DNA of 61,227 nt from an uncultured Thermoplasmatales archaeon (GCA_964606745.1 CAZSHJ010000004.1:1-61227); one strand, 5' to 3'. Positions 8,127-42,197 are shown, numbered from the stretch's first letter. Made by a program: numbers and translations. The notes: generated from the letters alone by a model not told the origin.

Positions 8127-8149
8127 CCTTTTATTTTCCCTCAATTTCA

Positions 8150-13077: not shown

Positions 13078-13150
13078 GTCCCTTTAGCGGAAATACATTT
13101 ATTATTGTTACTATCCCAACTTTTTTATTTAAGTTCCAAATACACCCTCT

Positions 13151-13312: not shown

Positions 13313-13380
13313 CCGGCAATTTGTTAATATCTCTCTAGAAAAGTTTTATAAAGAAAATCTGCTTAATATAGCCAGATAAA

Positions 13381-13740
13381 ATGGCAGTTATAGGAGGAAT
13401 ATTCGGTAAAAGTCACAGGAGGGATAGCGAGTACATAGATCTTGCTGAGGAAGTCGGCGGCAAGGAGGAAACAGAGCCGATGATGTATGTAAAAGTCGCA
13501 GAATTGCAGAACTACGAGGATTTGAAAGACTTCACAGATTATGTTTACAATGGAGATATCCTGATACTTGATACGGCTCAGATATCATCGGATGATCTGG
13601 AACTCGAGAGGATTACAAACGAACTCAAGAGAGTTATAAATGATATCGGGGGAGATATTGCCGGACTTGGCAGGAATTTGCTGATAGTCACACCCGCCGG
13701 TATAAAGGTGAACAGGAGAAAAATCAGGGGTTCCTTCTAA
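13381..13740 (+). CDS. sepF: Cell division protein SepF
   Basis: YVYNGDILILD, ITNELKRVINDIGGDIAG, LIVTP motifs. Confidence 0.85.
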   Translation: MAVIGGIFGKSHRRDSEYIDLAEEVGGKEETEPMMYVKVAELQNYEDLKDFTDYVYNGDILILDTAQISSDDLELERITNELKRVINDIGGDIAGLGRNLLIVTPAGIKVNRRKIRGSF

Positions 13741-17051: not shown

Positions 17052-19368
17052 GAGGTTCCTCATAGAGGGCGGGGAGGTACATATTGTAGACTTATTCAGT
17101 GCCGGTGATGGCGAACTAATAGAGATAAGCAGGGAAATGGGGCTTGCACTCAGTCTCGACGAAATGAAACTCGTAAAGGAGTATTTTAAAAAAAGGCAGC
17201 GAAATCCTACGGATCTTGAACTGCAGGCACTCGGTCAGGCATGGAGCGAGCATTGCTGTTACAAATCCTCCAAAGTTGTATTGAAGGAAAACGTGTACGG
17301 CATAGAGGAAAGCAAGATTGTGACGAGGGAGGACGCAGGCGTTATCGAATTTGACGACGAACATTACTATGTTGCGGCACTTGAATCTCATAATCATCCG
17401 TCTGCCATAGAACCGTATGGTGGGGCGGCCACGGGCATAGGCGGCATAGTAAGAGATGTGCTGTGCATGGGAGCTCAGCCAATAGCATTGATTGACCCCA
17501 TCTTTTTCGGCACGTTAGATTATGATTACGGGAAACTGCCAAAGGGCGTGAAACATCCCCGTTACCTGTTCAAACGGGTCGTAGAAGGAATAAGGGATTA
17601 CGGAAACAGAATAGGCATCCCTACGGTTGCCGGCCAGGTATACTTTCATGACGGATATGTGGGTAATTGTCTGGTAAATGTCGGCTGCATCGGCATAGTA
17701 AAGAAGAAAAACCTCATTCACAGCAGGGTAAAAAACCCGGGTGACATATACATCTATGCAGGCGGGAGGACAGGGAGGGACGGTATCCACGGTGTAACAT
17801 TCGCCTCAGAGGAACTCAGGGAGGAATCAGAGAAGGAGTCGATTTCCGCCGTTCAGCTCGGCGACCCGATTACAAAGGAGCCCCTAATCCATGCGTGCCT
17901 TGAATGCACCGAAGAGGGCATAGTCGAGGGAATGAAAGATATGGGCGGCGGCGGGCTGTCCTGCGTCTGCGGCGAGCTTGCATATGATGCGGGATATGGT
18001 GCGGAGATATATCTCGACAGAATTCCTTTGAAAGAGGGGGATATGACTCCCTGGGAGATATGGGTGTCGGAATCACAGGAAAGAATGATGCTTGCCGTCA
18101 AGGAGGAGAATGCCGACAGGGCACTGCAAATATTCGGGAATTGGGACGTGGAAGCCGTTGTCGTGGGCAGGGTGATAAAGGAGCCGTTTGTACGCATAAT
18201 TTACAATGAGAGGGTGGTAGGGGAACTGGATTTGAGATTTCAGGTTGCAGGACCGTTATATGAAAGGCCGTGGAAGAAACCGGTGAGCAGGGAAGGAAGT
18301 GACCCCGATTTTGATATGCCGGACATAGAAGACATGGTGCTCAAAATTCTTTCGTCCGTCAATGCCTCGTCCAGGGAATGGGTGGTCAGACAGTATGACT
18401 TCGAGGTGAGGGGCAGCACATCAATGAAGCCCCTTCAGGGAGAAATAGGGAGGGAGACTCATGGCGATGCTGCTGTTATAAAGCCGCTGCCCGATTCTTA
18501 CAAGGGACTCGCAATAACTTCGGATATAAATCCGTATTTCACGTCGATAGATCCGTATCTGGGTGCACGATCTGCCGTTGATGAGATGTGCAGGAATCTG
18601 GCAGCAGTTGGTGCTCGCCCTGATTCAATAGGGGACTGCCTGAATTTCGGCAATCCAGAAAAACCGGAAAGAATGGGGAATTTACACATTGCCACAAGGG
18701 GACTTGCAGAGATGGCTCGAGCACTTCACCTTCCGTTCATCTCGGGCAACGTAAGCCTTTACAACGAGGGTTCTGAAGGGACGATTCCTCCGACGCCTAC
18801 CGTCATGGGCATAGGAATTGTTGATGACATACGGAAATGTGTTACCTCGAATTTTAAAAAGGAAGGAAACGGCATATATCTCATAGGAGGAACAAAGAAG
18901 GAGATGGGAGGAAGCGAATATTACCAAGCGATGGGATTATCCGGGGGAAAGGTGCCAGGAAGCGATGTGGAGATGTTGAAAAAGAGCGTGGCCTCGGTAA
19001 TAAAAGCCATCAATTCCAGGCTTGTCTCGGCATGCCATGATATATCCACAGGTGGATTGGCATCGTGCCTGGCGGAGATGGCTATGGGCGGCAAAGGGGC
19101 GGAAATATGCCTATATTCAATGGAAGATATAAGACCGGACTTCAAACTCTTTTCAGAATCAAATACCCGATGGGTAATGGAAGTTAATAAGGGCGACGAT
19201 GAAGAATTCAAGGCGCTTTTCGAAGGAGTAAAAGTGACAAGAATCGGGGAAGTCAAAGGCAACAGATTGACCGTATATGACGGGGAAGAGATGGAGAAAC
19301 ATATTGACCTGCCGATAGCCACATTATATGATAAATGGAGCAGCAAACTGCAGAATACAATGGGATGA
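17044..19368 (+). CDS. purL: Phosphoribosylformylglycinamidine synthase subunit PurL
   Basis: WSEHCCYKSS, ESHNHPS, DMGGGG, SESQERM, ISGNVSLYN. Confidence 0.97.
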   Translation: MIERFLIEGGEVHIVDLFSAGDGELIEISREMGLALSLDEMKLVKEYFKKRQRNPTDLELQALGQAWSEHCCYKSSKVVLKENVYGIEESKIVTREDAGVIEFDDEHYYVAALESHNHPSAIEPYGGAATGIGGIVRDVLCMGAQPIALIDPIFFGTLDYDYGKLPKGVKHPRYLFKRVVEGIRDYGNRIGIPTVAGQVYFHDGYVGNCLVNVGCIGIVKKKNLIHSRVKNPGDIYIYAGGRTGRDGIHGVTFASEELREESEKESISAVQLGDPITKEPLIHACLECTEEGIVEGMKDMGGGGLSCVCGELAYDAGYGAEIYLDRIPLKEGDMTPWEIWVSESQERMMLAVKEENADRALQIFGNWDVEAVVVGRVIKEPFVRIIYNERVVGELDLRFQVAGPLYERPWKKPVSREGSDPDFDMPDIEDMVLKILSSVNASSREWVVRQYDFEVRGSTSMKPLQGEIGRETHGDAAVIKPLPDSYKGLAITSDINPYFTSIDPYLGARSAVDEMCRNLAAVGARPDSIGDCLNFGNPEKPERMGNLHIATRGLAEMARALHLPFISGNVSLYNEGSEGTIPPTPTVMGIGIVDDIRKCVTSNFKKEGNGIYLIGGTKKEMGGSEYYQAMGLSGGKVPGSDVEMLKKSVASVIKAINSRLVSACHDISTGGLASCLAEMAMGGKGAEICLYSMEDIRPDFKLFSESNTRWVMEVNKGDDEEFKALFEGVKVTRIGEVKGNRLTVYDGEEMEKHIDLPIATLYDKWSSKLQNTMG

Positions 19369-25148: not shown

Positions 25149-25371
25149 GTAATGGGATGAACAGTAGTTCCGAAAGTGCCTAATTCCGCCAATCATTTTT
25201 GTCTGTAAACAACAATATAATGTGATTTTAGTTGATTTTTTCATTAAAACCACCTTATTAAATAATCATTTCACTTCAAAAATTGTGTGATTAGTTTAAA
25301 ATTACTAAAAACCCACCTTCTCCAGATTGGAGAACTGGATTAAAAATCAATTTTTATCATTGAGTAACATG

Positions 25372-27015
25372 CTATCCCTCCCCTGTCTTGTAGAATATTG
25401 TAGCAAATAACTTTGATGTTATGACATGTTCGCTATATTTCTCTCCGTATAGCATAAGGCAAATCATAATATCAATTAAAATCCAGAGATTATACATAAG
25501 AACTGAAAACATGAAGTAAAAGAATCTAACGAAATAGTTCTTTGATGTGGTCTTTGAGCGGAATGAATACTTCTTAACCCTGTAGCTTGTCTCTATACCC
25601 CATCGCTTTCCGTATTGCCTGAAAACTTTATCTGCCAAGTCGACATCATTTTCATTCCAATCCTCGTTGCTTGCAAACGAATATTTTCTCCCATCATTTT
25701 CAACAATGATAACATTAATCGGTACATTTGCTATCATGAAATCTTTTATTACACACGGTGCAGATGTTATTTTTAGCAAGTGTATAATGGTTGAATATGC
25801 TGTGCAAGGCATTAAAAAATTCAGTTGGTTCTTGTTGAAGACCCTGATGCATTTTCCGCTGAAGAACCCTCTGTCGGCATATACCTTTCGTATCTTTATT
25901 CTCTGCTTTGCATATGCCAACAGTTTTGATAAAATATCCTCTTTTTTATCGAATGGTCCAACTGGCAATGCCAGCAAAGTAAATCTTCTACCAGCCTCAA
26001 CGATGTTTATGGTGGCAAATCTATAACCTCTATTTGTCCCTCTTTCTGGCTTTCTCCCCACCACCATAGGTGTATTTTTATCGCCATAAAACAGCCAATC
26101 AGTAAAATCAATGGCAACATCGAATTTTCTGTATTTATTGAATAGGTTTTCTTTCCTCGCCATATCCCAAAGTTTCTCAAATATTACGTTGAACATTCTC
26201 TGCAATTCTGCGATATCCCCATATTTTTCCAAATGATAAAGCAGCGTATCTGCATTTGGAACATATTTTCTCAACTCTTTCATGGTCGTTGATCCGTTCT
26301 CTGCAAAATCCTGGGTTAACGCCATATAGATTAGCAAGTCGATAAAATTATTTTTTGTGTAAATGCAATTCCCATTTTGTTTTATGTCGAGAAATGGTGA
26401 AATTTTCTTTTTAATAAGTTTGGCCAGCTCCTTTGTCTTCTTATCCCTTTTACGATAAATAGTACCTTTAGAAATCTCCTTTGTTGGTTTTTCTATGTTG
26501 ATTTCAATATCCAAATCAATACTGAACTTATCAGCCACTTCAACTATTTTCTTTGCTGTAAAATCAATAATCGCCCTTGTTTTGTCGTCAAGGATGTTAT
26601 TTATGAAATGACTAAATGTTCTTCTGTCAGGAATCTTGGTAAGTCCCAACTTTCTTGCTTCTATTTTATAATCCTCTAGATATGATACCAACTGGGTAAA
26701 AAATTTGAGTTGCTTTATTTTCATGAGAAGGATGGCTTGCAAAAGAGCATCATAAGAATATTTAATTTTTCGGTAATCTTGTTTGAAAATGTTCAGATTG
26801 AGACATTGCAGGATATCCAAAACCTTTATCTCATTTCCATCAACTAATCTGAAAACATCATATACTTCAGATTTGATTTTATTCTCTAGTCTTTTGTCTA
26901 AAATTGGCAGGGCGTTACGCTTATTAAGGCTTTTTTGTTCATCTCGCTTGGAGATGTGTATGTGCTTGGCGGCCATATTTATCTCCCAAAGAGATGCTGG
27001 CTGTATGGTCAGCAT
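25372..27015 (-). CDS. ISH3-family (IS4 superfamily) DDE transposase with extra N-terminal domain
   Basis: VAIDFTD, VYADRGF, YGKRWGIETSYR, PNADTLLYHL; N-terminal KYSYDALLQAIL...IPDRRTFSHF resembles DUF772/InsH-N; start may be ATG 26976. Confidence 0.85.
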   Translation of the reverse strand: MLTIQPASLWEINMAAKHIHISKRDEQKSLNKRNALPILDKRLENKIKSEVYDVFRLVDGNEIKVLDILQCLNLNIFKQDYRKIKYSYDALLQAILLMKIKQLKFFTQLVSYLEDYKIEARKLGLTKIPDRRTFSHFINNILDDKTRAIIDFTAKKIVEVADKFSIDLDIEINIEKPTKEISKGTIYRKRDKKTKELAKLIKKKISPFLDIKQNGNCIYTKNNFIDLLIYMALTQDFAENGSTTMKELRKYVPNADTLLYHLEKYGDIAELQRMFNVIFEKLWDMARKENLFNKYRKFDVAIDFTDWLFYGDKNTPMVVGRKPERGTNRGYRFATINIVEAGRRFTLLALPVGPFDKKEDILSKLLAYAKQRIKIRKVYADRGFFSGKCIRVFNKNQLNFLMPCTAYSTIIHLLKITSAPCVIKDFMIANVPINVIIVENDGRKYSFASNEDWNENDVDLADKVFRQYGKRWGIETSYRVKKYSFRSKTTSKNYFVRFFYFMFSVLMYNLWILIDIMICLMLYGEKYSEHVITSKLFATIFYKTGEG

Positions 27016-27016
27016 C

Positions 27017-27100
27017 TTTTGGTATCAATATTTTTTGATATCAAAATATAATACCGTAATTGTTTATATATTTTTTGGTATCAATATTACTTAGTATCAA
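27017..27100. promoter_or_regulatory. Phased operator/centromere-like repeat array between divergent genes
   Basis: RRTATCAA-type motif at 27021, 27037, 27077, 27093 (spacing 16/40/16); 16-bp direct repeat TTTTGGTATCAATATT at 27017 and 27073; palindrome TTTTGATATCAAAA at 27033-27046. Confidence 0.65.
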
Positions 27101-27144
27101 ATAGTAGAAAGTATTAAATAATCCAGTTGGTATTATAAAATCAC

Positions 27145-27471
27145 ATGGATGGCTTAGCCGAGAAAGTCCTGTCTCTTTCAATCCGCAGGAAGGTACTAGA
27201 GGAACTAATAAAAAAAGGCAAGGCGACTGCTTATAAGATAGCTAAAGAATTGGACATTCCTGATGCAGCAGTCGGCAAACATCTCGGGATTTTACATGAA
27301 GTAGGACTTGTACAATCACCTGAAATTGATGTTTCAAGCGGGAGACTCAAAAAGATATATATGCCATCCAATAGAGCTGCAAAAATTTTAAAGGAATTTT
27401 GGAAGAAAGAAATTATGGCAGCACCAAAAATTATCCAGAATATGTGTAAAGAGGTGAAAGAAAATGGTTGA
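27145..27471 (+). CDS. ArsR/PadR-like winged-helix DNA-binding protein
   Basis: RRKVLEEL, AYKIAKEL, VGKHLGILHEVGLV, GRLKKIY. Confidence 0.8.
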   Translation: MDGLAEKVLSLSIRRKVLEELIKKGKATAYKIAKELDIPDAAVGKHLGILHEVGLVQSPEIDVSSGRLKKIYMPSNRAAKILKEFWKKEIMAAPKIIQNMCKEVKENG

Positions 27472-28372
27472 AAAAATATTAGAGATAGATATAGATGAGT
27501 TGGGTGTAGATGAATGCAACATTAGGGGAAGTAAATGGGAATACGATGAGGAGCTTATAAAATCAATTGAAGAAAACGGTATCATCGAACCCCTATTGGT
27601 TCGACCAGCTGACCCTTCTACTGGTTTGAAGTATGGAATTATATGTGGGAGTAGACGTTATAACGCAGCAATTGAAGTGGGTTTAACAAAAGTACCATGT
27701 ATTGTAAAAAAGGTTGATGATGCAACGGCTATCGGTCTCTCTATTATGGAAAACAAACACAGGAAAGATATTCCTGGTTGGGTATACGCAGAAAAAATAA
27801 GACAGATGAACAAGTTAATAAATCATGGAACGCCAACTACAAAAAAAGTAAAAATGATTATATCAAAAACTGGCTTTGCCAAAAGAACGGTATACGATTA
27901 TCTTGCATTGACAGAGGCACCTGAAGAAATAATAGAACTGATGAAAGAACCAGAAGAACGTTCAGAGGAAGTGAATGAGTATATAAAAGCTACTGCACCC
28001 GGTGCAGCAACATTTATAAAGGAGAAACCACTTTCCAAAGATAAGGCAGTTAAAATAGCAACAAATCTTAAGGATTTTTCTGATGAAAAAAAATTTGAAG
28101 TTGCTCGATTTATCGCACCGCTTAAAGAGGAAATAGCGATGGATTTAATCGAAAAAGTAAGATTGCACCCTGAAAAACCTTTAGAAGAAATCAAGAAAAT
28201 GGTTGAGGGTATACCAAAAAGTGCTACTTGGGTGGTACAATTTGAGTGGGAGCCTAAATTGGTTAAAGCATTGGATAATGCGTGCATGGAGAAGAATATC
28301 GATAGAAAGAATCTCGTTACTAAATACGTAAAAGACGGATTGAAACGGGATAGATTTTTAGAGGAGGATTAG
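27464..28372 (+). CDS. ParB/Spo0J-family protein 1 (CTPase-HTH plus putative C-terminal RHH)
   Basis: EELIKSIEENGIIEPLLVRP, ICGSRRYNAA, MENKHRKDI; C-terminal VVQFEW...LVKALDNAC...LVTKYV has a ribbon-helix-helix pattern. Confidence 0.85.
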   Translation: MVEKILEIDIDELGVDECNIRGSKWEYDEELIKSIEENGIIEPLLVRPADPSTGLKYGIICGSRRYNAAIEVGLTKVPCIVKKVDDATAIGLSIMENKHRKDIPGWVYAEKIRQMNKLINHGTPTTKKVKMIISKTGFAKRTVYDYLALTEAPEEIIELMKEPEERSEEVNEYIKATAPGAATFIKEKPLSKDKAVKIATNLKDFSDEKKFEVARFIAPLKEEIAMDLIEKVRLHPEKPLEEIKKMVEGIPKSATWVVQFEWEPKLVKALDNACMEKNIDRKNLVTKYVKDGLKRDRFLEED

Positions 28373-29119
28373 ATGAATGAAGAATTAGCTAAAATAATAA
28401 AAGAGGACAGAGTTGCATCATTGACTACAACCAGTTTGAATGAAATTCTCAAATTATTTCCAATGCAAGGTACACCCTTTAGCTGTTGCATAACGAGCAT
28501 AAAAGCTCATGCATCATCCTCCGAAAAATCAAGGCCACTAATCGATGACCAAGAATATGGGATTGCAGGATATATCGACAAAAGCTCGGATTCCTTTAAT
28601 TTGGATTACAATATACTATTTAATGAGGAAAATGGTGTGCCAGAAAACCCATTAGATGCAGGAGGAATTAATAGAGTACTGACATCGATGAGAAAGCTCG
28701 GTTTTGAAGATGCTGCTGTGGATAATTTTACAGTAATAGTTAGGGATAAAGAGATTGGAAGATTGGCAGGTATTGATGAAGAATTATTTCACTTAACTAT
28801 GGTCTCTGAGCCTGTAGATGGCGATATGGATAGAGCGAAAGTAAAGGAACATGAAGTAAACGAGAGATTATTTAAGTATCATGGATTCAAACATCGTATT
28901 ATGCATTGTAAGAAGTTAATTGACCGTAGGCAGGAACTTACAAAAAAGCAGAGCGAGCAAAAACCATTAATTCATTGGAGGGGTTCAACTATAACTTCTT
29001 TGAGATCACCAATAAAAATTGCTCAAAAAGTAAAAGAACATTTCGGGGAATATGGACTCATAAAGAAATATGGACAAGGAAGTGAGGATACTTTGGTGCT
29101 ATTAGATGTGTCTAGATAA
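28373..29119 (+). CDS. Hypothetical protein between the two ParBs
   Basis: 248 aa, abuts ParB1 stop; no Walker A motif recognised. Confidence 0.75.
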   Translation: MNEELAKIIKEDRVASLTTTSLNEILKLFPMQGTPFSCCITSIKAHASSSEKSRPLIDDQEYGIAGYIDKSSDSFNLDYNILFNEENGVPENPLDAGGINRVLTSMRKLGFEDAAVDNFTVIVRDKEIGRLAGIDEELFHLTMVSEPVDGDMDRAKVKEHEVNERLFKYHGFKHRIMHCKKLIDRRQELTKKQSEQKPLIHWRGSTITSLRSPIKIAQKVKEHFGEYGLIKKYGQGSEDTLVLLDVSR

Positions 29120-29130
29120 ACCCATAAAAA

Positions 29131-30303
29131 ATGACTAGAGAGATAGTATCTATCAACATAGACAAATTGGATGTTGATAAATGCAATATAAGACAGGGCA
29201 TATGGGATGCTGATACAGAGTTAATAAACTCAATAAAGCAACAGGGAATAATCGAGCCATTGATTGTTAGACCTCTTTTAGGGGACAGCGGTGAGATAGC
29301 TTATGGTATAGTTTGTGGAAGTCGTAGGTATAATGCTGCAATAGAAGCAGATCTAAAGGAGGTTCCTTGTATAATTAAAGAATCAGACGACAGACAAGCC
29401 AGAGACTTATCAATGACTGAAAATCGACAGAGAAAAGATACCCCCGTATGGATGGATATTGAGTGGATCGGACTCAACTACAAAGATTATCTAAGTGAAG
29501 GTTTTATCCCTAATGAAGCAATTGATAAGTTAGAAAGTACGGGTTTTTCTCCTCAGACTAGGGAAAGATATGTAAGAATTTTTCAACTACCCATCGAAAT
29601 AAAGGGGTTGTTGAGGGAACTGTCGGACAGAACTATATATCAGAAAGAGTATATTATGCGAGTTACATCAAAAAATATTAACAATACACTTAGTTTAGGA
29701 AATGCCGATCATCTTGTCAGAATTATGGACAAATATGATGTTGAGAAGTTAATGGAAATAGCTATTTTTTTTATTAATATAAAAGAAGAAATTGCTGATA
29801 AAATAACAAATGAGTTAGCCTTGCACCCGGAAAAATCTGTAAATGAAATTTATAGAAAAATATCAAAAAAAGAGTATAGTGTAAATGAGAAAATTATTAA
29901 ATTTGATTGGGAAGTTTGGAAAGCAATAGAAGACATATGTATGGACAAGCAAATGCATGTTGACAAATTTCTAACAAATACTATAAGAAGGAGATTGGTC
30001 AGAGAGGGCTATCTAAAATCTGAAAAAGTTATCGTAGACGATATTACCGAACGCTCAGATAAGGAAAATAAAATTGATGTTAGAGCTACCAAAAGTAGAC
30101 TCCAAAAATTTGGATATAAATTTGTTAAACAAGAGGGAGATATCACTACTTTGAGATGCCCAACAAAAGATGGGTATGGATGTTTTTTCAGAGCGTATAA
30201 TAGTGGGAGAATATCTATAATCACAATAGAAAATCCTTCATCATATGAAAATCCGAGGAAAAGACTAATGGAAGAAAAGAACAGATTAAAAACAAAAAAA
30301 TGA
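29131..30303 (+). CDS. ParB/Spo0J-family protein 2 (paralog with extra C-terminal domain)
   Basis: ELINSIKQQGIIEPLIVRP, VCGSRRYNAA, TENRQRKDT; shares LHPEK and the RHH-like segment with ParB1, then about 90 extra aa. Confidence 0.85.
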   Translation: MTREIVSINIDKLDVDKCNIRQGIWDADTELINSIKQQGIIEPLIVRPLLGDSGEIAYGIVCGSRRYNAAIEADLKEVPCIIKESDDRQARDLSMTENRQRKDTPVWMDIEWIGLNYKDYLSEGFIPNEAIDKLESTGFSPQTRERYVRIFQLPIEIKGLLRELSDRTIYQKEYIMRVTSKNINNTLSLGNADHLVRIMDKYDVEKLMEIAIFFINIKEEIADKITNELALHPEKSVNEIYRKISKKEYSVNEKIIKFDWEVWKAIEDICMDKQMHVDKFLTNTIRRRLVREGYLKSEKVIVDDITERSDKENKIDVRATKSRLQKFGYKFVKQEGDITTLRCPTKDGYGCFFRAYNSGRISIITIENPSSYENPRKRLMEEKNRLKTKK

Positions 30304-30367
30304 GTTTAGATATATATTTACAAAAACATTAAAAAGGCAATAAAATTACAGTACAAAGAGTAAAAAT

Positions 30368-30601
30368 ATGATGGATGATAAAATGATAGAAATCAAAGAT
30401 GGTAAATTTTACATATTGGATAGCGAGAATGGTAAATGGATTTTTGTAACAGAAGACGAAGCAATAAAAAAATTGAAGGATACTGCAAAAAAGAGTGACC
30501 CAGAAAAGACGAGGGTTATTGAAGTTGATATCAGTGACGATGAATGGTCAATAAAACAAGTTCCATGGTCGAAAATAGCGATGAAACTAATCGGGGAGTG
30601 A
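30368..30601 (+). CDS. Small hypothetical protein
   Basis: 77 aa, KFYILD...WSIKQVPWSKIA; co-oriented with the module. Confidence 0.7.
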   Translation: MMDDKMIEIKDGKFYILDSENGKWIFVTEDEAIKKLKDTAKKSDPEKTRVIEVDISDDEWSIKQVPWSKIAMKLIGE

Positions 30602-30606
30602 TAAAA

Positions 30607-30840
30607 ATGGAAAGAGAACAAATAAACAAATTGAGTGATTATCTAAAACAAATGGATGAGATACTTGAAAAAATTTTGCACGCACAATTTAGGATACAAA
30701 ATAAAAAATGGCTTCAAGCAATAACAAAAATTGAAGATGGATTTCAACAAACAGTAGGTTATATCGCAGATGTTAAAGGTATTGAAATAAAATCTAAAAT
30801 TATGACAAATGAAGATATTAACAAAATATTGGAGGGATAA
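30607..30840 (+). CDS. Small helical hypothetical protein
   Basis: ATG 30607 after GGGGAGTGA; 77 aa amphipathic helices. Confidence 0.6.
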   Translation: MEREQINKLSDYLKQMDEILEKILHAQFRIQNKKWLQAITKIEDGFQQTVGYIADVKGIEIKSKIMTNEDINKILEG

Positions 30841-31139
30841 AAACGGTAGATACAGATTAGGCTTCATCATATAAAAGCCTAATTATTTTTGGTAATTGTT
30901 TACCTTTCTGAAGCAAAGATTCGAAAAATAGAGAAATACGCTCCCCCCCCCCATATTCAAACTAATAGAATGGATTTTAGGACTTTCTTGAGGAAATCAG
31001 CAATAAAAAGCCTCCATTCAAAAATTCTGTGTCCAGAATTATTATATTTGGAAGTTATGCATAGGCCATAGCATATATTTTTAGGAATATCACGTATGGG
31101 TTAAGTTTATATACAACCGTTCTGCATATTTTTTATTTA

Positions 31140-31721
31140 ATGACAGATTTTCTTATAACAGAAGTCATTCAAAATATTAGAAAAGAAGTGAAGGAAGGCA
31201 AAACTAAATTGCAAATATCAAAGGAGTTAGGAATAAATTATGGTATGGTGAGAAAATACGCTAAGGATACCAAACGAAGGAGGGTCTACACTGCACAGGA
31301 TATTCAGCATATAAGGGACTTGGTTAAAAAGACCGATAACAAAGCCGAAGTGGCCAGACAAATGAATATATCCCATGATACTGTGCTAAAGTATACATTG
31401 GATATCAAGGTCCGAAACAAGACCTTCGGAGAGAAAACTTGGGATATATTGAGAGAGATTATGGAAAAAGGGTATGTCTACCTCAACAACGGAAAGACAA
31501 CCAAGGTTTACATGCTGAGGAAACATTTTCCATCTATACAGATGGCACGGGTAAAAGGGAGGTCTATTGCATTTCTTCCAGACAGGAAGGAGGAGGCTAT
31601 GAGAGCGATGCTGCAGAAATTCGATAAGAAGGTTTGGAGCTATCAGGAGCTAAAAAGTGTGACGAAGTTGTTTGATAGCGATTTAAATAGGAAAGAGAAA
31701 AAGAAATTCATTGAGAAATAA
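31140..31721 (+). CDS. Tandem helix-turn-helix protein
   Basis: Two HTH-like repeats (TKLQISKELGINYGMVRKY; NKAEVARQMNISHDTVLKY) followed by a wHTH-like region. Confidence 0.7.
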   Translation: MTDFLITEVIQNIRKEVKEGKTKLQISKELGINYGMVRKYAKDTKRRRVYTAQDIQHIRDLVKKTDNKAEVARQMNISHDTVLKYTLDIKVRNKTFGEKTWDILREIMEKGYVYLNNGKTTKVYMLRKHFPSIQMARVKGRSIAFLPDRKEEAMRAMLQKFDKKVWSYQELKSVTKLFDSDLNRKEKKKFIEK

Positions 31722-31814
31722 AATGAATTACATAAGATGACTTGAAGCATATAAAGAGGATGCAATGAAGGAGAGATTGAAATCCCTCGGCTTAATTCAG
31801 CTAAAAGCTTAATA

Positions 31815-32015
31815 TTAGTTTAGGAGGATTAGACCCACTAGTTGTAACAAGATTCCAGCCGATATTAATATGCCGGCAATCCAATAAAAAACCCCCCTGA
31901 ATGTGTTTAATCTTCTTATTGTAGGAAACTTATCCTTAACGCAACTCCACAACAGAATTACTGCAGACCCAATAGAAAAAACTGTTACACCTACAGGAAA
32001 TATGAGGTCATTCAT
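31815..32015 (-). CDS. Small two-TM membrane protein
   Basis: 66 aa with two hydrophobic segments; overlaps the upstream gene by 8 nt. Confidence 0.55.
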   Translation of the reverse strand: MNDLIFPVGVTVFSIGSAVILLWSCVKDKFPTIRRLNTFRGVFYWIAGILISAGILLQLVGLILLN

Positions 32016-32868
32016 TATCTTCTCTCCCTAAAACATCACGATACATAATCGTATCTATAATAGTATTTTTAATGGTGTTATAAAATTTTTCTTTTTCTAT
32101 ATTATCAATCCATATCTCTCTTAGCTGATATTCATTAAGTAGAATTTGTGCTTTTTCATTTATCCCAACTTCCAAGAGCTGGGATAACCTAAGCTGATAA
32201 GTTTTTAGTAAGGCCTTTGCATTATTGATACTCTCATACCCCGCCAGTGTATGAGGGTTTAGCCAGAAAGTTCCTTGGGCCACCCAATCTATAAGGGCGC
32301 CCATTATAGCATCATCTTCCTTCTTATCGCTATTTGAATACTCTTGCATAGGCCATATCTCCCGCATAATAGAAATGTTTTGGCAATCAGGAAATTTGGA
32401 CCCCATGAGAGTTTCTAATTTATTTAGCAATCCAAAGTTCCACAATGGCTTGTACATCATTGTATAGAAAAGATTCTTTTCCTTGTTAGTGAGATTTGGG
32501 GGTACATCCACGCTCCACTTCAACACACCTGAAGCTTTAAGCTCGATTTTGCCGTACCTAATAATATCATACAACTGGGCAACCCTGTTGGTATATGGTG
32601 TGGTTACCCCTCCATAATCACTAGTTGTATCCCATATAAAAGAAACCCGCCCTTTTGAGTAATGTTTTTTCTCTTTTGTACTCAAAACTTTATAAACTGC
32701 ATTTTCGTTTTTCCCGTTTTCTACAAAGCTATTCCATATATCGGTTAATTCCTGCGGGGACAACGGATGTGGTAGTACATATATATGTGATAAGTTTTCT
32801 TTTTTCATAAATTTCTCTGTATTAAACACTGATTTTAGGAGTGTATTTTTCCATCCATATGGGGGCAT
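32008..32868 (-). CDS. Hypothetical protein
   Basis: 286-aa ORF coupled to its neighbours; no motif recognised. Confidence 0.65.
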   Translation of the reverse strand: MPPYGWKNTLLKSVFNTEKFMKKENLSHIYVLPHPLSPQELTDIWNSFVENGKNENAVYKVLSTKEKKHYSKGRVSFIWDTTSDYGGVTTPYTNRVAQLYDIIRYGKIELKASGVLKWSVDVPPNLTNKEKNLFYTMMYKPLWNFGLLNKLETLMGSKFPDCQNISIMREIWPMQEYSNSDKKEDDAIMGALIDWVAQGTFWLNPHTLAGYESINNAKALLKTYQLRLSQLLEVGINEKAQILLNEYQLREIWIDNIEKEKFYNTIKNTIIDTIMYRDVLGREDNE

Positions 32869-33289
32869 ATTTATTTAATAAGTCTCGAGATGTGATTTGT
32901 AAATCAGATAAATCTCTAGCGACCTTTTTAATTGCATCCATTTTTGGTGAATCTAACTGCCGTTTAGTTATCTCGGCCAAGAGCATACCTTTATCGGTTA
33001 ATTCAATCCAATAGTGGGCTGTACGCATACCCTCCTCTTTCACCCTATACCGTTTTATTAATCCTACAAATTGTAGGGAAAGCATATCCTTTAATAATTT
33101 TCTATCGTTCACTCCCTCATAGCATAATTCACTAAACTCATATCCAACAATTTTTTCTGATGCTTGATTGTCTAGAGAATGCTCTGAGAGGGCGTATATG
33201 CCCAGCTTAAGCCGTTTCCACTGGTAGACTCTATTATCCCTAGCCTCAGACAAGATAACACAAATCATACCCCAATCCATTTCAGCCAT
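32822..33289 (-). CDS. Winged-helix protein, Panacea/SocA (DUF4065)- or YwgA-like
   Basis: YQWKRLKLGIY...YEF..LCYEG...LLKDMLSLQFVGLI...ELTDKG pattern. Confidence 0.5.
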   Translation of the reverse strand: MAEMDWGMICVILSEARDNRVYQWKRLKLGIYALSEHSLDNQASEKIVGYEFSELCYEGVNDRKLLKDMLSLQFVGLIKRYRVKEEGMRTAHYWIELTDKGMLLAEITKRQLDSPKMDAIKKVARDLSDLQITSRDLLNKYAPIWMEKYTPKISV

Positions 33290-33766
33290 TTTATCTACCC
33301 AATTCTAATCCAATCATTTCACGGCATATATCCTTCTATTCTTTTTAAAAGTTTCGTTATTACTGGTGAACTATAGTTAAATAAACATTGACTGATATAT
33401 CTATTATACTTTCTCATATGTCTACTTAGAAGCATCAAAACACGTAGATGACTGAAGTAAAGTTCTTTATGATACATATGTGTCGTTATATTGAATGGAA
33501 TGGGACTACAAAAACCTATCGGCACGGACTTCTTTAGCTATGAAATGTGCTGTGCCGCATAAATGGAATTTTCTTGGTTATTATTAAATTAAATGCTACT
33601 AACTAATATAGATATATATCATATATTCTTTCAATATTCGTTGGAAAAGGAGTTATTCAACACAGCAATGAAATGTAAATGATAAAAACGCCGGTCACCA
33701 CGTGAATATATTTGTGTGTACCTACAAAAAACAACAACATTTTTAATCACAAGCAAGTTTAGTATT

Positions 33767-36845: not shown

Positions 36846-38003
36846 TTATCTGCCTTGGGGGGGGAATGTGTAGTGCCGAATGCGAAACGACGAACGACAT
36901 CGACAGGGCTGCCCCCGGGTCCAAGTAACAGTAAGATTTTGCGTATTGATAATCCAGGCAAAAGCAGAAATATTCGGATGTCTGCAGATGTCACCTTCGT
37001 CAGGAATCCGCTTCCAGTAGCCGCCCTTGTGATCTCGTATAAGGGATTGACAGGTTTCCTCAGACAAATCCCCATCATTACTATGGCAGGTTAACAACTC
37101 CTCCGCTCTATCGTATCTGCGAAATGAGGATGGGTATTCCTCTCTGTTTGCCACCGACCCAGTTTTTTCGGGGTCCAGCCAAACGTGATGATTCGTATGC
37201 CACAGTATCCCTCTTTGACCGCCATCCCTCACAGCAATATAACTATGTGTTTGCTCAATCATAAGAATGCCCCCCTCTATGTCGCACCAAGCAGATGTCT
37301 CAAAATCCCAATGGTAGGGCCACGTTTTTTTCGTAGAAGATGACCTTGTTATTTCCCTCCATAGCGTGCTCACCTCCTCAACGGTTGCACAGTGTATTAT
37401 GGTATAAAGATCCAGCAAATAGGTGGGTATCCCCTCATCAGACGAATCAATATGTTCCGGGTTCTTGGCAAGTACGGTGGCAGCACCAGCAAACCCCAGC
37501 CCTTTTTCATTGAGCAGAGGAACCTCAAAAATCACCGGGATACCAAGATACATATAATCATATGGGGGATTATGGTCTTGGCGGAACTCATGCAGCCGTG
37601 GTTTTCGCGTGAAGAAAAACCGGAAAATTGGCTTCAGCAAATCAAACATGTTCAGATCAAAATTTTGCGTCATATACGTGTGATTGTCCCCAGTTGCAGG
37701 TGCCGTCATTGCCGTTACCGTACAGGCTTTATCCATATACCTACCAAGCACTATCTGCATGGCCATCAGTTTCTGAAGCCCAATATGAGCGCCAATAGAA
37801 ACATTGAAAAGCTCTTGGAAAAAACTAGGGAGATTTTTTTTAAGCAACGCAATCTGTTTATCCACCTCTTCCATCACTTTCTTTTTCCCATATTTACGAA
37901 TGAAAATCCAAAGAATGAGATACAAAAAATGGTAGAACATCATATTTCTTCGGCCTAATAGCTTTGCATAACCTTCGCCAAAAAAATATCTATTTTTCAT
38001 CAT
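36846..38003 (-). CDS. C45 family (Ntn-hydrolase) peptidase/acyltransferase
   Basis: Catalytic ACT, QNFD, LNEKGL, HTNH. Confidence 0.8.
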   Translation of the reverse strand: MMKNRYFFGEGYAKLLGRRNMMFYHFLYLILWIFIRKYGKKKVMEEVDKQIALLKKNLPSFFQELFNVSIGAHIGLQKLMAMQIVLGRYMDKACTVTAMTAPATGDNHTYMTQNFDLNMFDLLKPIFRFFFTRKPRLHEFRQDHNPPYDYMYLGIPVIFEVPLLNEKGLGFAGAATVLAKNPEHIDSSDEGIPTYLLDLYTIIHCATVEEVSTLWREITRSSSTKKTWPYHWDFETSAWCDIEGGILMIEQTHSYIAVRDGGQRGILWHTNHHVWLDPEKTGSVANREEYPSSFRRYDRAEELLTCHSNDGDLSEETCQSLIRDHKGGYWKRIPDEGDICRHPNISAFAWIINTQNLTVTWTRGQPCRCRSSFRIRHYTFPPQGR

Positions 38004-38229
38004 TTATCAAAATATATTTATCATATAAAAAACCAATGAAAATAAATTTGGTACCTCCAATTTCATGAATGTTTTTGCCCATTTATAGCGATAAAAAGGT
38101 AGAGCAGGTATTCCTTGGCATTTTTGTTTGCTAAAACACTCTCTGTTCAAAAATTCTAAACTCAATTCATATCTGTTGGGATGGCCATTCCTTGGCGTTT
38201 TTTAGCATTCGGAACTACTGATGAATGAA

Positions 38230-38280
38230 CAGTAGTTCCGAAAGTAGCTAATTTCGCCAATCATTTTTGCCTGTAAAATA
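38230..38280. mobile_element. Terminal sequence of a second sister element
   Basis: CAGTAGTTCCGAAAGTAGCTAATTTCGCCAATCATTTTTGCCTGTAAA closely matches 25162-25210 and is preceded by ATGAA. Confidence 0.8.
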
Positions 38281-38397
38281 CTAAACCAATTTTTGTTTAT
38301 AAAACTCATACAGCAGATAATCATTGACAAAAACACATTGTATATGGTGGGTTTAAAAGAAAAAAGAAAGAGGATTAGATGTTGAACTTGGTCTCTC

Positions 38398-39738
38398 TTA
38401 AAATAGGACTAACACATCAACTTTTTCGCTTTCACTGGGATTACCGGCACCATCATAGGCCGTTACTCTTATTTCATGAAATCCAAATCTCTTCTCCAAG
38501 GTCCAAACATAAGGCGTTTCATTATCTATAAATTTTGAAATGTCATCAAGATAAAACTCAACCCTATCAATCCCAGAAACTTCCTCATCCTCTACTTCAA
38601 CATCCCAAGCATCTGCAGTTACATCAAGAGAACCAATAATCTTTGTTCTACCAAGATAAACCTCTCTAACTGGGTTATCAAATAAATATAGCCACCCATC
38701 AAGAGGCTTAGTTAGCTCCACCACTGGTTTTCCAGTATCATTACCCCTAATAACATCACTTTCTACACCATGAACGGCAGTTCCGATAAAATAATGGCCA
38801 TACCTTATTCTGCACCATCCTCTTTCTCCAGTAACCCCGTACGTATCCTCACCCCAACGGTTACCCCAACTGTTTTTAACAATCCAACATTGTTCACTAT
38901 CGTTATAGCCAACGATAACAGGCTGATGGTTTATATCCTCCACCGATTCACCTGGTTGATGTGGGTGTACCAAGATATCACCACGGTATCCAAACCAGTC
39001 ATCATACACAGCCACATCTGCCACGAGGGGGCCATTCTCTATCAATGCCTGTTTTATTGCATCAACACTCTGATTGACTGCTGTCCAATAATCACCAACG
39101 GGCAAGAGATAACTCTCCCAGTCCGGGCATTTATCATCGCAGGAACCATTCTCAGCTATATATGGAAAACATGATTCTGGAATTGCACCGCCAGTTTCAT
39201 GCATCCACTCGAATGATCTTTCGGCCCATCCTCCGCTACATCCATAGCCAGGACCACATGATACCAAATACTGTTCTGATAGGTCCATGTCCACATCAGA
39301 ATCATTAAATTCAATATTTATTGCTGCCTCAAGGGCGCCAATAGCACCAAATGCCCAACAGGAGCCACACTGCCCTTGATTCCGTATGGGGGTGGTCCAG
39401 TCCCCACCATTATAGTTTCTCCAATCAAAACTAGGGGGCAAATTCCCAGCAGGTTCTTTTAACTCTACCGTATTAGCATTAGAATAACCAAGGTAGATAT
39501 ATCCGAGGCCATAAGGACATTCTCCAGAATCATCACTCTGTGTCTCTCCCCTTAGCACAGAGGTTATGGTAAGACAAAAAAAGAGGAACGATAGCCCTAT
39601 AGCCAAACTTTTTTTCCATTTTTTGTTTTGCATTTTCTTCGCCTCCGAAATACAAAATGACTTACTGCTTATATAACCTTCGAAAACGTCCACAAGTGAT
39701 AACAACAATTTATAGAGATTCCCTGGCATTTCCATCAA
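38398..39738 (-). CDS. Secreted C1A (papain-family) cysteine peptidase with C-terminal Ig-like domain
   Basis: FDWRN, RNQGQCGSCWAF, LSEQYLVSC, NHQPVIVGY, KNSWG. Confidence 0.92.
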   Translation of the reverse strand: MMEMPGNLYKLLLSLVDVFEGYISSKSFCISEAKKMQNKKWKKSLAIGLSFLFFCLTITSVLRGETQSDDSGECPYGLGYIYLGYSNANTVELKEPAGNLPPSFDWRNYNGGDWTTPIRNQGQCGSCWAFGAIGALEAAINIEFNDSDVDMDLSEQYLVSCGPGYGCSGGWAERSFEWMHETGGAIPESCFPYIAENGSCDDKCPDWESYLLPVGDYWTAVNQSVDAIKQALIENGPLVADVAVYDDWFGYRGDILVHPHQPGESVEDINHQPVIVGYNDSEQCWIVKNSWGNRWGEDTYGVTGERGWCRIRYGHYFIGTAVHGVESDVIRGNDTGKPVVELTKPLDGWLYLFDNPVREVYLGRTKIIGSLDVTADAWDVEVEDEEVSGIDRVEFYLDDISKFIDNETPYVWTLEKRFGFHEIRVTAYDGAGNPSESEKVDVLVLF

Positions 39739-39882
39739 TCAAATTTGTGTTCTGTTAAAAAATTCAACAATAAACAAGACGGCTGCCGCAAGATTGTTTG
39801 ATGCAAATTTTAGCAGGGAGGAAAAACATAAGTTAGTTAAAGAAAAATAGAGAAGAAAAGGATAGTGGGAAAAAGAGAAAAA

Positions 39883-40089
39883 TTAACCGTTTTGATCGTC
39901 CTCGAAAATGAACAGTTCATCTATTGTTGTTTTTAATGCTTTTGCAACATCGTAAGCCAGTTTTAGAGAGGGATTGTATTTTCCTTTTTCGAGAAATAGA
40001 ATAGTTTCTCTGCGTACACCTACTCTTTTTGCAAGATCCTCTTGAGTTAGATCGTAACGGGCTCTGAGTTCCTTAATTCTTGTTTTCAT
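39883..40089 (-). CDS. XRE-family HTH transcriptional regulator
   Basis: [34 protein letters not shown]. Confidence 0.9.
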
Positions 40090-40091
40090 GC

Positions 40092-40496
40092 TTATTTCCC
40101 TTTCCAGGCTAAGTAAAGATAGGATACCATAAATGTTAATCCTCCACACAAGACAACAACGGCTGTGACATAGTGTCCTGGCATTTCATAGTCAAATAAA
40201 ATTCCTGATAGTAATGGAGCCCCAACTGCACTCCAAATTGAAGCAATAAATCCATAGGAACATGCTTTATAATTTGTTAGTTTCAACCTTTCATCTTGTG
40301 CAGGAAGTCCCTTTTTAACATTTTTTATTCTATCCCATAGTATATACATTGCTGAACCTATTAATATCAAGACTATTCCAATTGGGAATATTTCATCTAG
40401 TTCAATGTTTCCTGCATTTAGTACATAAAAGGATAGTGTCACTATTACAGCTGCTACTATTCCAAGGCCTAATAAAATTCCTTTTATATCTTTCAT
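40092..40496 (-). CDS. DUF2178-like membrane protein
   Basis: Four TMs, DERLK motif, typical partner of XRE regulators. Confidence 0.7.
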
Positions 40497-40500
40497 TTTT

Positions 40501-40761
40501 TCATACCTCCTTATATTTATTTAATTTTGTTTTTCTAACTATATCTATAACAGAAAGAAAGACACCTGCACCTATAAAACTATAGCCTATCAGAAGGTCA
40601 TTACCGCCGAAAATGATGGCAAGAATAACTAATGCCATCCCAAGCATAGCTAGTCTAGAATGTGGTTTTTCTTTCTTTTTCCTTACCAAGATTACAATAA
40701 GTGCAACAGCTATCAACACAACGATGGATATTGCAATGTAAACTTCTGGTGTACTACTCAT
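40501..40761 (-). CDS. Small three-TM membrane protein
   Basis: 86 aa hydrophobic, same operon. Confidence 0.7.
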   Translation of the reverse strand: MSSTPEVYIAISIVVLIAVALIVILVRKKKEKPHSRLAMLGMALVILAIIFGGNDLLIGYSFIGAGVFLSVIDIVRKTKLNKYKEV

Positions 40762-41216
40762 TTTTTACCTCCTTTTCTATATTAGTTAGTGATAGCTTTT
40801 CGTTAGTTTTCCCTAACTCAATATTTGTTATTTCAAACTTTTTATTTATTTTTTCTAACATAATGTTAGGTATATATAATACAAGTATTTATAGTTTTCT
40901 GCTCTTCATGTATTTAAGGAGAAAAATATAGTCGTATCGAAAGATATTACGGAGTTTCTGCCATTATATTTAACAAGACAGCAAGCACCGGATTTATTAA
41001 GAAAGAGAGAATATGAAACAATGCAGTTTTGTTCCTCAAGGGAGAAAGGAGAGGACTAGAGAATACGTTTTCTTTTTCTAAGCATTATTTTTTATAGATT
41101 TTCCTTGGCAAAACCAACATACAGGAATGAAGGAGATTGCTATGTAAAACGGATTTATGACATGAAGAACTCACTCCTTTTTTATTTAATTATTTAAAGT
41201 TGAACATTTCCCTTAT

Positions 41217-42197
41217 TTACAATGTCCTTATGACGAAGAATAGAATAGAGAGAATGGCTAACCCCATTATGCCGCTTGCCTGCCACTTTGGATAATTTAG
41301 CCTGCTTTTTATTCCATTCATTGTTTGCCTGATATCAGCGTTTGTTGAGGAAATCTTTATCAGATCCCGTAGGCCTCTAAAGGGAATAGAATACGTAAGG
41401 ATGAGAATGAGTACGGTAAAAGCCAAAAGTATCTCAATATTAAAGGAGTGATCCAGTATAGCCAATGGTGTTAAACTCGAAAAAAGCAAATAAAATCCAA
41501 TAATACTTATACACAGTCCGCCGGTTACCAACGCAAGGGCTATTTTTAGTGTCTTTGTTAATCCCCATCTTACGGCAGGCGTCTTTAAACCGGTTTCTTT
41601 GTCCTCCAAGTAATCTTGGGATTGATTTACCAAAGCTATGCCGTAATGTACTATTGTAAGAGCCAGAGTAATAAAAATTAGTGGTAGAGAAGGCATTCCT
41701 CCTATTACAACATAAAGTAGAAAAATAAAGGGGGCAAACATGGCTGAAAAAGCTAATGTGGCATGCAATATACCCCTGACTTTGAAGTGAAAAGGTTCAA
41801 CAGAATATCCTAAACCAAAAAAAGTGGCAAAAATAATCCAGATTAATATCCAATAGTTGTTGAGAAGATAACATATGTGAGCCGTGATTAAGATACCTGC
41901 CATGACTTGAAGAAAAATTAGCGTCTTCAGCATTTTCTTCCCAAGAACACCAACGGCTTGTGATACAAATGTTTTATATTTGCTGTCTACTTCAACATCT
42001 GCTAATGCGTTTATTAAAAATCCGCTCCAGAACAGAAGCATAAAAACTAAAAACGATTCTATAACATGTATGGCTAAAACATTAGAAAGCGATGCGGCTC
42101 CGAGAAGGAGGGGTATAGCCATACCTGGGGCTTCTCCGGGGATGTATTCCATCCTGCATGCATTTGCGTATGCTCTCAAGTATTTCCTGAGTTTCAT
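41217..42197 (-). CDS. UbiA-family prenyltransferase
   Basis: LINALADVEVD, NQSQDYLEDKETG Asp-rich motifs, multiple TMs. Confidence 0.8.
   Translation of the reverse strand: MKLRKYLRAYANACRMEYIPGEAPGMAIPLLLGAASLSNVLAIHVIESFLVFMLLFWSGFLINALADVEVDSKYKTFVSQAVGVLGKKMLKTLIFLQVMAGILITAHICYLLNNYWILIWIIFATFFGLGYSVEPFHFKVRGILHATLAFSAMFAPFIFLLYVVIGGMPSLPLIFITLALTIVHYGIALVNQSQDYLEDKETGLKTPAVRWGLTKTLKIALALVTGGLCISIIGFYLLFSSLTPLAILDHSFNIEILLAFTVLILILTYSIPFRGLRDLIKISSTNADIRQTMNGIKSRLNYPKWQASGIMGLAILSILFFVIRTL

Follow-up and report, generated by a model that had tools for sequence, protein, structure and literature searches.

How archaeal plasmids, viruses, and integrated elements achieve stable inheritance is little understood, and archaea generally lack chromosomal ParABS. 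A described archaeal arrangement is the AspA-ParB-ParA cassette of pNOB8 (Sulfolobus), in which the gene of a small winged-helix binder stands first and is followed by an overlapping ParB-superfamily gene and then parA (PMC5120986). ParB homologues also occur outside parAB operons, often on mobile elements; in a survey of such proteins, archaeal ParBs with a helix-turn-helix (HTH) and a dimerisation domain were rarely found beside ParA and were judged unlikely to be chromosome segregators (Kaljevic et al., 2025; bioRxiv 10.1101/2025.10.10.680097). ParA-independent ParB clamps (Noc, KorB, VirB, and BisD) and orphan ParBs of mobile elements, archaeal ones among them, are already recognised (10.1101/2025.10.10.680097), also on Asgard elements. 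Here, we analysed a 61,227-nt stretch of an archaeal chromosome (uncultured Thermoplasmatales archaeon, GCA_964606745.1, CAZSHJ010000004.1:1-61227; hereafter the window), in which six tightly coupled open reading frames (ORFs) at 27145-30840 encode a winged helix-turn-helix (wHTH) protein, two ParB proteins (ParB1 and ParB2), two orphan proteins (X and Y), and a second small protein. The operon represents a conserved and selected ParA-less module of integrative archaeal elements that has an operator array at its promoter. The original prediction, made from the sequence of the window, had proposed these six coupled ORFs, and all of them were verified at the coordinates given in Table 1.

Table 1. 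Coordinates of the operon, its control region, and the adjacent transposase gene, counted from the first base of the window.
Feature	Coordinates	Strand	Remarks
ISH3-family DDE transposase, 547 aa	25372..27015	(-)	Divergent from the operon; NCBIfam transpos_ISH3 2.2e-45, Pfam DDE_Tnp_1 2.5e-7
Operator or centromere-like array	27014..27101		Two 32-nt units (27014-27045 and 27070-27101); four TTGRTATCAA sites
Putative archaeal promoter	27110..27138	(+)	TATA-like AGTATTAAATAA, then degenerate half-site CCAGTTGGTATTATAA; read from the sequence
wHTH, 108 aa	27145..27471	(+)	ArsR/Phr-type; Pfam HTH_5/ArsR 2.9e-8
ParB1, 302 aa	27464..28372	(+)	8-nt overlap with the wHTH gene; ParB_N N-domain, HTH, helical middle, predicted C-terminal ribbon-helix-helix
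X, 248 aa	28373..29119	(+)	Starts on the base after the ParB1 stop; orphan fold
ParB2, 390 aa	29131..30303	(+)	11 nt after X; ParB1-like architecture plus linker helix and extra alpha/beta domain (~residues 314-387)
Y, 77 aa	30368..30601	(+)	Conserved partner; no family match
Second small protein, 77 aa	30607..30840	(+)	From the ATG at 30607 (98 aa from 30544); predicted helical; accessory, outside the core

The genomic contexts of relatives, about 19 of the close family and 4 distant ones (23 in all), reveal how much of this arrangement is kept. X lies directly downstream of a ParB gene in all 23, and the usual gene order is wHTH-ParB1-X-Y-ParB2. A tyrosine integrase gene in divergent orientation is located just upstream of the operon in L006, L020/L021, L023, and L024 (related loci are given as L numbers), and the element in L020 covers ~8 kb, beyond which host genes follow. 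In the window, L001, L003, L022, L027, and L030, this integrase slot is filled by DDE transposases from at least two unrelated families (ISH3/DDE_Tnp_1 and IS240); in L003, two IS240/IS6 transposase genes in the same orientation (7638-8822 and 13106-14254) bracket ParB1-X-Y-ParB2 in a composite-transposon-like manner. The conserved unit is an operator array followed by wHTH-ParB1-X-Y-ParB2, together with the divergent tyrosine integrase where present. The expected conservation of the operon and its co-occurrence with an integrase or transposases were thereby borne out. The suggestion that the module guides transposition targets gained no specific support, because the transposases in the slot belong to unrelated, ordinary insertion sequence (IS) families; the ancestral neighbour is a tyrosine integrase.

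The distant relatives have a single ParB with X, and with Y in one case, on contigs that are dense in small co-oriented genes and carry methylases, small integrase-like genes, TnpB, a MoxR-type ATPase, or a D5-type primase-helicase; these contigs look virus- or plasmid-like because of such gene content. The deep core is ParB-X(-Y), and the second ParB lies outside of it: the twin-ParB operon that had originally been taken as the unit is conserved, but it is not the deepest layer. The closest relative of the window X and ParB2 is encoded on L007 (JAFDIG010000251.1), a 3.5-kb contig binned as 'Deltaproteobacteria bacterium', which is probably mis-binned because every other context is archaeal. 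Species-representative genomes yielded two loci only, one of them this contig, and in scans of IMG/VR a single distant ParB was recovered but no close relative that has X. On its downstream side, at a distance of a few kb, the module is followed in L001 (15723-19293) by HinfI-type restriction-modification (R-M) genes and an N6/N4 methylase gene, and in L034 (4450-7126) by genes for NgoPII, a Dcm methylase, an HhH-GPD glycosylase, and an HD-domain protein.

No ParA accompanies the module. As originally noted, a Walker A ATPase is lacking from the operon, where no ORF contains a Walker A motif, and the same was found in the 23 related contexts. CbiA, AAA_31, and ParA Pfam domains are absent within +/-10 kb in every context, and the deviant Walker A motif KGGxGK[ST] is absent from all related loci and from the 61-kb window; homologous operons thus lack parA in the close as well as the distant contexts. 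On the virus-like contig L012, a 191-aa protein with the Walker A motif GGVDSGKT follows directly after ParB-X, and the same contig carries a second, unrelated ParB-like gene (phrog_1033, 1.2e-8), a MoxR-type ATPase, and a DUF2201 protein; these side features of L012 have the coordinates 7090-7857, 3286-6011, and 11609-12184.

The array between the transposase gene and the start of the wHTH gene includes a perfect 14-bp palindrome, TTTTGATATCAAAA, at 27033-27046, and its exact motif was found nowhere else in the 61-kb window. The putative promoter is only 7-35 nt 5' of the wHTH ATG, so the transcript is probably leaderless or has a short leader. The sequence AGTATTAAATA / GGTATAAATAC is kept at the same position in L001, L006, L020, and L022, and L006, L020, L021, and L022 each have four copies of GATAYCA in the 160 nt that precede the wHTH gene. 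In the typical layout, one pair of GATAYCA sites is upstream of a conserved TATA-like box and an inverted pair is between the box and the start codon. Overall, there are 20 such sites in 1,120 nt compared with 0.34 per kb elsewhere, for a pattern that was chosen after two loci had been seen, which inflates its nominal P value. In L003, an AbrB-like gene of 59 aa replaces the wHTH gene, GATAYCA is absent, and GTATATAC palindromes are present instead; because the motif co-varies with the first gene in this way, the first-gene product is the probable reader of the operator sites. The 32-nt repeats were also considered as terminal repeats of the IS; this assignment was rejected because no convincing inverted-repeat partner was found across the transposase gene and because loci that lack an IS carry the same motif in front of the operon.

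The wHTH is likely an autoregulator or a loading adaptor that reads the GATAYCA sites. Its orthologues, which are 55-63% identical, head the operon in seven other loci. The best solved relative of its profile in the PDB is the ArsR-family protein 2p4w (3.6e-6), and AspA is not among the PDB matches. The original description of this protein as AspA-like was not upheld: it is of the ArsR/Phr type, homology to AspA was not detected, and the parallel to pNOB8 is one of gene order only. A 182-aa ORF on the minus strand of the window (42489-43037) is weakly similar to the operon wHTH (phmmer, 1.1e-4).

ParB1 and ParB2 are paralogues with 37% identity over ~300 shared residues (E=8e-58), and the LHPEK stretch that had been noted as a common feature is present in each. 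Both exceed the cut-offs of Pfam ParB_N (3e-18 for ParB1 and 1.4e-18 for ParB2) and NCBIfam TIGR00180 (2.2e-25 over residues 3-175 for ParB1 and 1e-21 for ParB2). A central HTH after the N-domain is supported by the TIGR00180 match over residues 3-175 (89.5 bits vs a cut-off of 58.45) and by Foldseek alignments of 200-250 columns to structures that comprise the N-domain and HTH of ParB, Noc, and KorB. The best known matches are C. crescentus ParB by sequence profile (6.8e-28) and M. xanthus ParB-CTPgammaS by structure (1.4e-8). Profile searches delimit a tight family of ~100 clusters, after which ordinary ParBs with PF17762 appear only beyond a gap; members of the tight family have no PF17762 in their precomputed Pfam annotation. 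A neighbour-joining tree resolves three clades, i.e., ParB1 (~290-300 aa), ParB2 (300-412 aa), and single ParBs from other contig types, with ParB1 forming a separate orthologous clade.

In an alignment of 75 family sequences, R47 (Box I), G63, R65, and R66 (Box II), and E97 and N98 (Box III) are invariant, giving the motifs GSRR and EN..R; the GxRR and EN..R motifs originally read in both ParBs thus recur throughout these 75 sequences. GSRR aligns residue by residue to GERR of C. crescentus ParB (E102) and M. xanthus ParB (E93), and the position of the catalytic Glu is occupied by Ser in 73 of the 75 sequences, by Gly in the other two, and by Glu in none. An E102A variant of C. crescentus ParB binds cytidine triphosphate (CTP), entraps DNA, and closes, but does not hydrolyse the nucleotide and is 'clamp-locked' (PMC8367383). 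The Gln of Box I (C-motif) that faces the base varies across the alignment, which makes the bound nucleotide uncertain; the nucleotide specificity of the ParB-CTPase fold is not predictable from sequence or AlphaFold3 (10.1101/2025.10.10.680097). The N-terminal ParA-activating peptide, LG-R/K-GL, is found in the first 60 residues of 0 of the 75 ParBs.

The AlphaFold2 (AF2) model of ParB2 has a predicted local distance difference test (pLDDT) score of 91.2 and consists of an N-domain (1-100), a helical region including the HTH (to 249), an extended segment (250-259), and two helices (260-273 and 277-291), followed by a low-confidence linker helix and an extra alpha/beta domain (314-387). The top Foldseek matches of the model are CTP-bound M. 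xanthus ParB, Noc, Spo0J, C. crescentus ParB, and KorB (1e-8 to 1e-4), with pNOB8 ParB-N at 1e-3 only. The extra domain (window 30070-30303, residues 314-390) gave a weak HicA_toxin signal in 3 of 15 cases (best 0.056) and no significant PDB or Pfam relative; in the ParB2 clade it carries the motif GY-x-F-x-K..GD..IYQKP, and the catalytic His of HicA is missing. Two proteins of this clade (P0042 and P0045) are annotated with an extra Ribosomal_L25p domain (PF01386), which is either a gene-calling artefact or a true fusion.

The C-terminal ~45 residues of both ParBs, 'WVVQFEWEPKLVKALDNACMEKNIDRKNLVTKYVKDGL' in ParB1, are predicted to form a ribbon-helix-helix (RHH). The full-length family profile matched ParG (1p94) in the PDB with E=1.6e-4, covering the ParG RHH, and a profile of the isolated 55-residue segment matched ParG over the whole RHH with E=0.15. 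Individual C-terminal segments gave weak but recurrent Pfam matches to RHH_4 (6/27) and ParG (5/27), and also to MatP_C. Because these matches agree with the strand-helix-helix topology of the AF2 model at 250-291, we accepted the RHH, which had been part of the original prediction, and a ParG-like identity of this C-terminus is supported at the level of profiles and model. As judged from sequence and predicted structure, the ParBs appear to combine the body of a bacterial-type nucleotide-gated clamp, from which the Glu for hydrolysis is missing, with a ParG-like RHH.

The X family comprises 32 clusters at 90% identity; at the 50% level, 79 representatives were recovered in an exhaustive search by profile, each a stand-alone protein of ~250 aa. 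X and the small proteins have no match in Pfam, NCBIfam, PADLOC, or PHROGs. Among 50 diverse members of X, no Pfam or PHROG match was consistent; the X profile matches no PDB sequence, and the AF2 model, of moderate quality (pLDDT 61.7, predicted template modelling score 0.63), has no structural match in the PDB or BFVD. Several identities were tried and rejected for X. It is not a divergent ParA, the outcome that would have turned the operon into an ordinary partition cassette, since it has no Walker A motif, no P-loop fold match, and no PDB or BFVD match. A primase or Rep is disfavoured as well: one weak Pfam 'Replicase' match (0.016) appeared in 1 of 50 members, and no AEP or HUH motif was seen by reading. 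The His and acidic motifs of the close family, which would suit a 2H phosphoesterase, a PD-(D/E)xK nuclease, or a dioxygenase, do not hold across the broad family, where T19 and D113 are the sole invariant residues and the alignment is too divergent for a pattern scan; a conserved catalytic centre is disfavoured because only these two residues are invariant. The operon was also considered as a defence system, and PADLOC gave generic matches only (a Csa3-type HTH and a methyltransferase-fused ParB).

Homologues of Y were detected by phmmer and hmmsearch in L001, L003, L006, L007, L014, L020, L022, and L023-L034. In most relatives the Y gene stands between those of X and ParB2; the window, L001, and L007 have it after ParB2. 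The C-terminus of Y is a short, conserved stretch of hydrophobic or amphipathic character (SWSKIAMKLIGE, SWLKVALLGFLQK, or SWQTIAMELMK), and this predicted terminal helix could be a membrane- or partner-binding element. For the second small protein, homologues were detected in just two loci, L001 (E=6.7e-7, with the alignment starting at residue 24 of the 98-aa form) and the near-identical L017. The ratios of nonsynonymous to synonymous substitution rates (dN/dS) relative to L007, the closest relative, are 0.048 for X, 0.051 for Y, and 0.13 for ParB2. These low values indicate that X, Y, and ParB2 are functional genes under strong purifying selection.

The operon is located in a foreign island of 8.4 kb with ~35% GC (roughly 25.2-33.6 kb; window 25200-33600) within a window of ~45% GC overall. 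The left border of the island is a conserved eIF-6/L31e/dsDNA-binding protein/S19e cluster, and the right border is a class II aldolase gene. The 61-kb window contains no tRNA gene that could serve as a candidate integration site, and att-type direct repeats were found to flank neither the island nor the element in L020. Apart from the IS in the integrase slot, no gene for replication or mobility could be identified in the island. The integrase of the window copy was either lost to the IS insertion or was never present. The 547-aa transposase of this IS has a ~220-aa N-terminal extension ahead of the ISH3 domain, and part of it is matched (2.3e-25) by an 84-aa gene at 17172-17426 on the plasmid-like contig L019.

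Downstream of the operon, the island encodes a 193-aa protein with several HTH units (31140-31721, plus strand) that is kept only in L007; it shows weak similarity to Cbp1, a CRISPR repeat-binding protein (NCBIfam, 1.8e-5), and to phrog_268 (5.8e-11). Three genes on the opposite strand (31815-33289, minus strand), encoding 66, 286, and 155 aa, have no family match and no homologue in any related locus. Two further low-GC stretches are present in the window, at 38000-42000, which includes a papain-family protease and a UbiA prenyltransferase gene, and at 56000-58000.

We propose, with a probability of about 0.4, that the operon serves a small integrative archaeal element as its module for maintenance and control and would ensure inheritance of the episomal or excised form by tethering. 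A dimer of the wHTH would bind the GATAYCA repeats that flank the TATA box, thereby autoregulating the operon and marking a loading site. ParB1 and ParB2, as homo- or heterodimers formed through the RHH, would bind a nucleotide, probably CTP, and shut their N-terminal gates around DNA, and the closed clamps would slide or accumulate on the element. Because the Glu for hydrolysis is missing, these clamps may be long-lived. X and Y would stand in ParA's place as ParB-bound effectors and most probably link the coated element to a host structure such as the chromosome, the membrane, or the division apparatus, and would thereby secure inheritance of the element in its excised or episomal form. The mechanism would be tethering or hitch-hiking rather than motor-driven movement.

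Several lines of evidence argue for maintenance. The synteny is conserved without ParA, next to an integrase, and the core is found on virus-like contigs and contigs with a D5 primase-helicase; ParG, the relative of the RHH, is a centromere-binding partition protein; and X occupies the position of parA in pNOB8 with the same overlapping junctions (PMC5120986). The ParBs keep the ParB fold and the HTH; the ParA-binding motif is absent from all 75 of them, and Ser stands at the GERR Glu position in 73 of 75, where E102A of C. crescentus ParB yields a locked clamp (PMC8367383). The operator co-varies with the first gene, and X, Y, and ParB2 are under strong purifying selection. Other points weigh against it. 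X has no recognisable fold or motif, so the tether role is a guess, made with a model of moderate quality (pLDDT 62). Which nucleotide is bound cannot be predicted from sequence (10.1101/2025.10.10.680097), and the Gln of the C-motif varies. On the ~8-kb elements no gene for replication was recognised, which leaves an autonomous episomal stage hypothetical; the window element has no integrase and may be immobile, yet its genes are intact. The same architecture would also suit transcription silencing. A broader proposal, that ParB-X-Y is an unrecognised DNA-inheritance class of archaeal viruses, plasmids, and integrative elements, in which X and Y replace the ParA motor, hydrolysis-deficient RHH-dimerised clamps coat the element, X and Y tether it, the terminal helix of Y could bind membrane, and the twin version is heterodimeric, is speculative and, in our estimate, rather unlikely as a whole.

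A tentative alternative, to which we assign some weight, is regulation of the KorB/KorA, BisD, or VirB kind, in which clamps would load near the operators and slide, the wHTH would latch them at promoters, and the genes of the element, including the divergent integrase, would be silenced or switched with X and Y as co-regulators, setting the integrated versus the excised state. The operators flank the TATA box in the stretch that the operon has in common with the divergent integrase gene, the structural matches include KorB, and control of plasmid or integrative and conjugative element (ICE) transcription by CTP clamps together with a small HTH or a non-ParA partner is established (KorB-KorA, BisD, and VirB). 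Long-lived, hydrolysis-deficient clamps would suit a roadblock, and the module persists in an island without an integrase. However, regulation leaves unexplained why ParB-X is kept without the wHTH on virus- or plasmid-like contigs and why the strongest constraint falls on the genes of two additional orphan proteins, and the relative of the C-terminal domain, ParG, is a partition protein, even though RHH proteins are also common repressors. It is improbable that X is instead an enzyme for DNA modification, DNA cleavage, or anti-defence that is recruited or activated by ParB, in the manner of DpdB-DpdA or the ParB-dependent thymidine dioxygenases of phages. Such an enzyme would agree with the strong constraint on X, with the proximity of the module to R-M genes in L001 and L034 and to methylases in L009 and L014, and with the pairing of ParB-fold NTPases with DNA-modifying enzymes in phages and defence islands, as documented in two reports (PMC13229309, PMC10164549); however, the broad family keeps T19 and D113 but not the acidic/His cluster of the close family, no enzyme family, fold, or PADLOC entry is matched, and a wHTH with an operator array and RHH-ParBs has the architecture of a site-specific DNA-binding complex.

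Two readings keep the module closer to classical partition. One is a Walker-type system whose ATPase acts in trans, either a ParA/MinD/SegA-like protein of the host or the product of a gene elsewhere on the intact element. ATPases of the ParA type classically pair with ParG-like RHH domains as well as with ParB domains, and most of the contigs are short enough for distant genes to be missed, but the ParBs lack the ParA-activating motif throughout (0/75), KGGxGK[ST] is found in no locus nor in the 61-kb window, no CbiA, AAA_31, or ParA match falls within +/-10 kb, and archaeal ParBs of the canonical type are rarely tied to ParA in the large survey (10.1101/2025.10.10.680097); we consider such an ATPase quite improbable. 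The other, a decayed and non-functional remnant of a partition operon that has lost parA, might be suggested by the IS in the integrase slot of the window and by the lack of an identifiable replication or mobility gene of the island's own. It is largely refuted by the conservation data, i.e., intact reading frames throughout, recurrence of the gene set in ~19 independent contexts, dN/dS of 0.05-0.13, and NTP-binding residues that are invariant in 75 sequences, and we regard it as extremely improbable.

The large survey found archaeal ParBs almost never beside ParA and left their role unexplained (10.1101/2025.10.10.680097); the operon supplies this class with a concrete and conserved set of partners, i.e., a regulator with its operator, a pair of paralogous clamps, and two orphan proteins. 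Its ParBs also provide a natural Glu-to-Ser change at the residue for CTP hydrolysis, the loss of which locks the clamp in bacteria. If X and Y are the effectors, they would define a motor-less, ParB-based mechanism of maintenance or silencing, and a function would be given to two unannotated protein families. The words 'ribbon-helix-helix', 'RHH', and 'paralog' are absent from the main text of Kaljevic et al. (10.1101/2025.10.10.680097), and in full-text literature searches neither the wHTH-ParB1-X-Y-ParB2 operon, nor the X and Y families, nor the ParB-RHH fusion was found to have been described. The original prediction of a new ParA-less module is correct in that the module is real, conserved, and without ParA, but ParA-less ParBs of archaeal mobile elements, the orphan class to which it belongs, were already recognised (10.1101/2025.10.10.680097).

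Besides a first gene for a small winged-helix binder and an overlapping ParB gene, the operon shares with the pNOB8 cassette a palindromic site upstream of the first gene and a third gene that starts at the end of parB (PMC5120986). X holds the position of parA in aspA-parB-parA (PMC5120986), but it is an orphan-fold protein where pNOB8 has a Walker ParA, and a second ParB and Y are added. The likeness of the first genes is an analogy, because the window wHTH is of the ArsR/Phr type and AspA was not detected as a homologue. ParB2 is far nearer to the bacterial CTP-clamp ParBs than to pNOB8 ParB-N (Foldseek 1e-8 vs 1e-3), and pNOB8 ParB ends in a CenpA-like histone fold rather than an RHH.

With bacterial ParB/Spo0J and Noc, the two ParBs share an N-terminal NTP-binding fold with Box I (xPLxVR), Box II (GxRR), and Box III (ENxxR), followed by a central HTH. 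They differ from these proteins in having GSRR in place of GERR, in lacking the ParA-binding peptide and a parA gene, in a C-terminal dimerisation domain that is replaced by the predicted ParG-like RHH, and in their context on archaeal mobile elements. KorB-KorA (RK2), BisD (ICEclc), and VirB (Shigella) are ParB-family nucleotide-gated clamps on mobile elements that make no use of ParA for the function considered here. KorB, which is among the structural matches of ParB2, acts with a small HTH protein at promoter-adjacent operators, and a silencing clamp of the KorB-KorA type would agree with the components of the operon and with the position of its operators. However, KorB keeps its ParA(IncC)-binding motif and shares an operon with incC, and all three systems are bacterial and have neither an RHH C-terminus nor paired paralogous ParBs, X, or Y. 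ParG (TP228) and omega (pSM19035) contain an RHH that is related to the C-terminal 45 residues of both ParBs; they are stand-alone proteins of 70-80 aa that are partnered by the Walker ATPases ParF and delta, whereas in the operon described here, which has no ATPase gene, the predicted RHH is fused behind a complete ParB N-domain and HTH.

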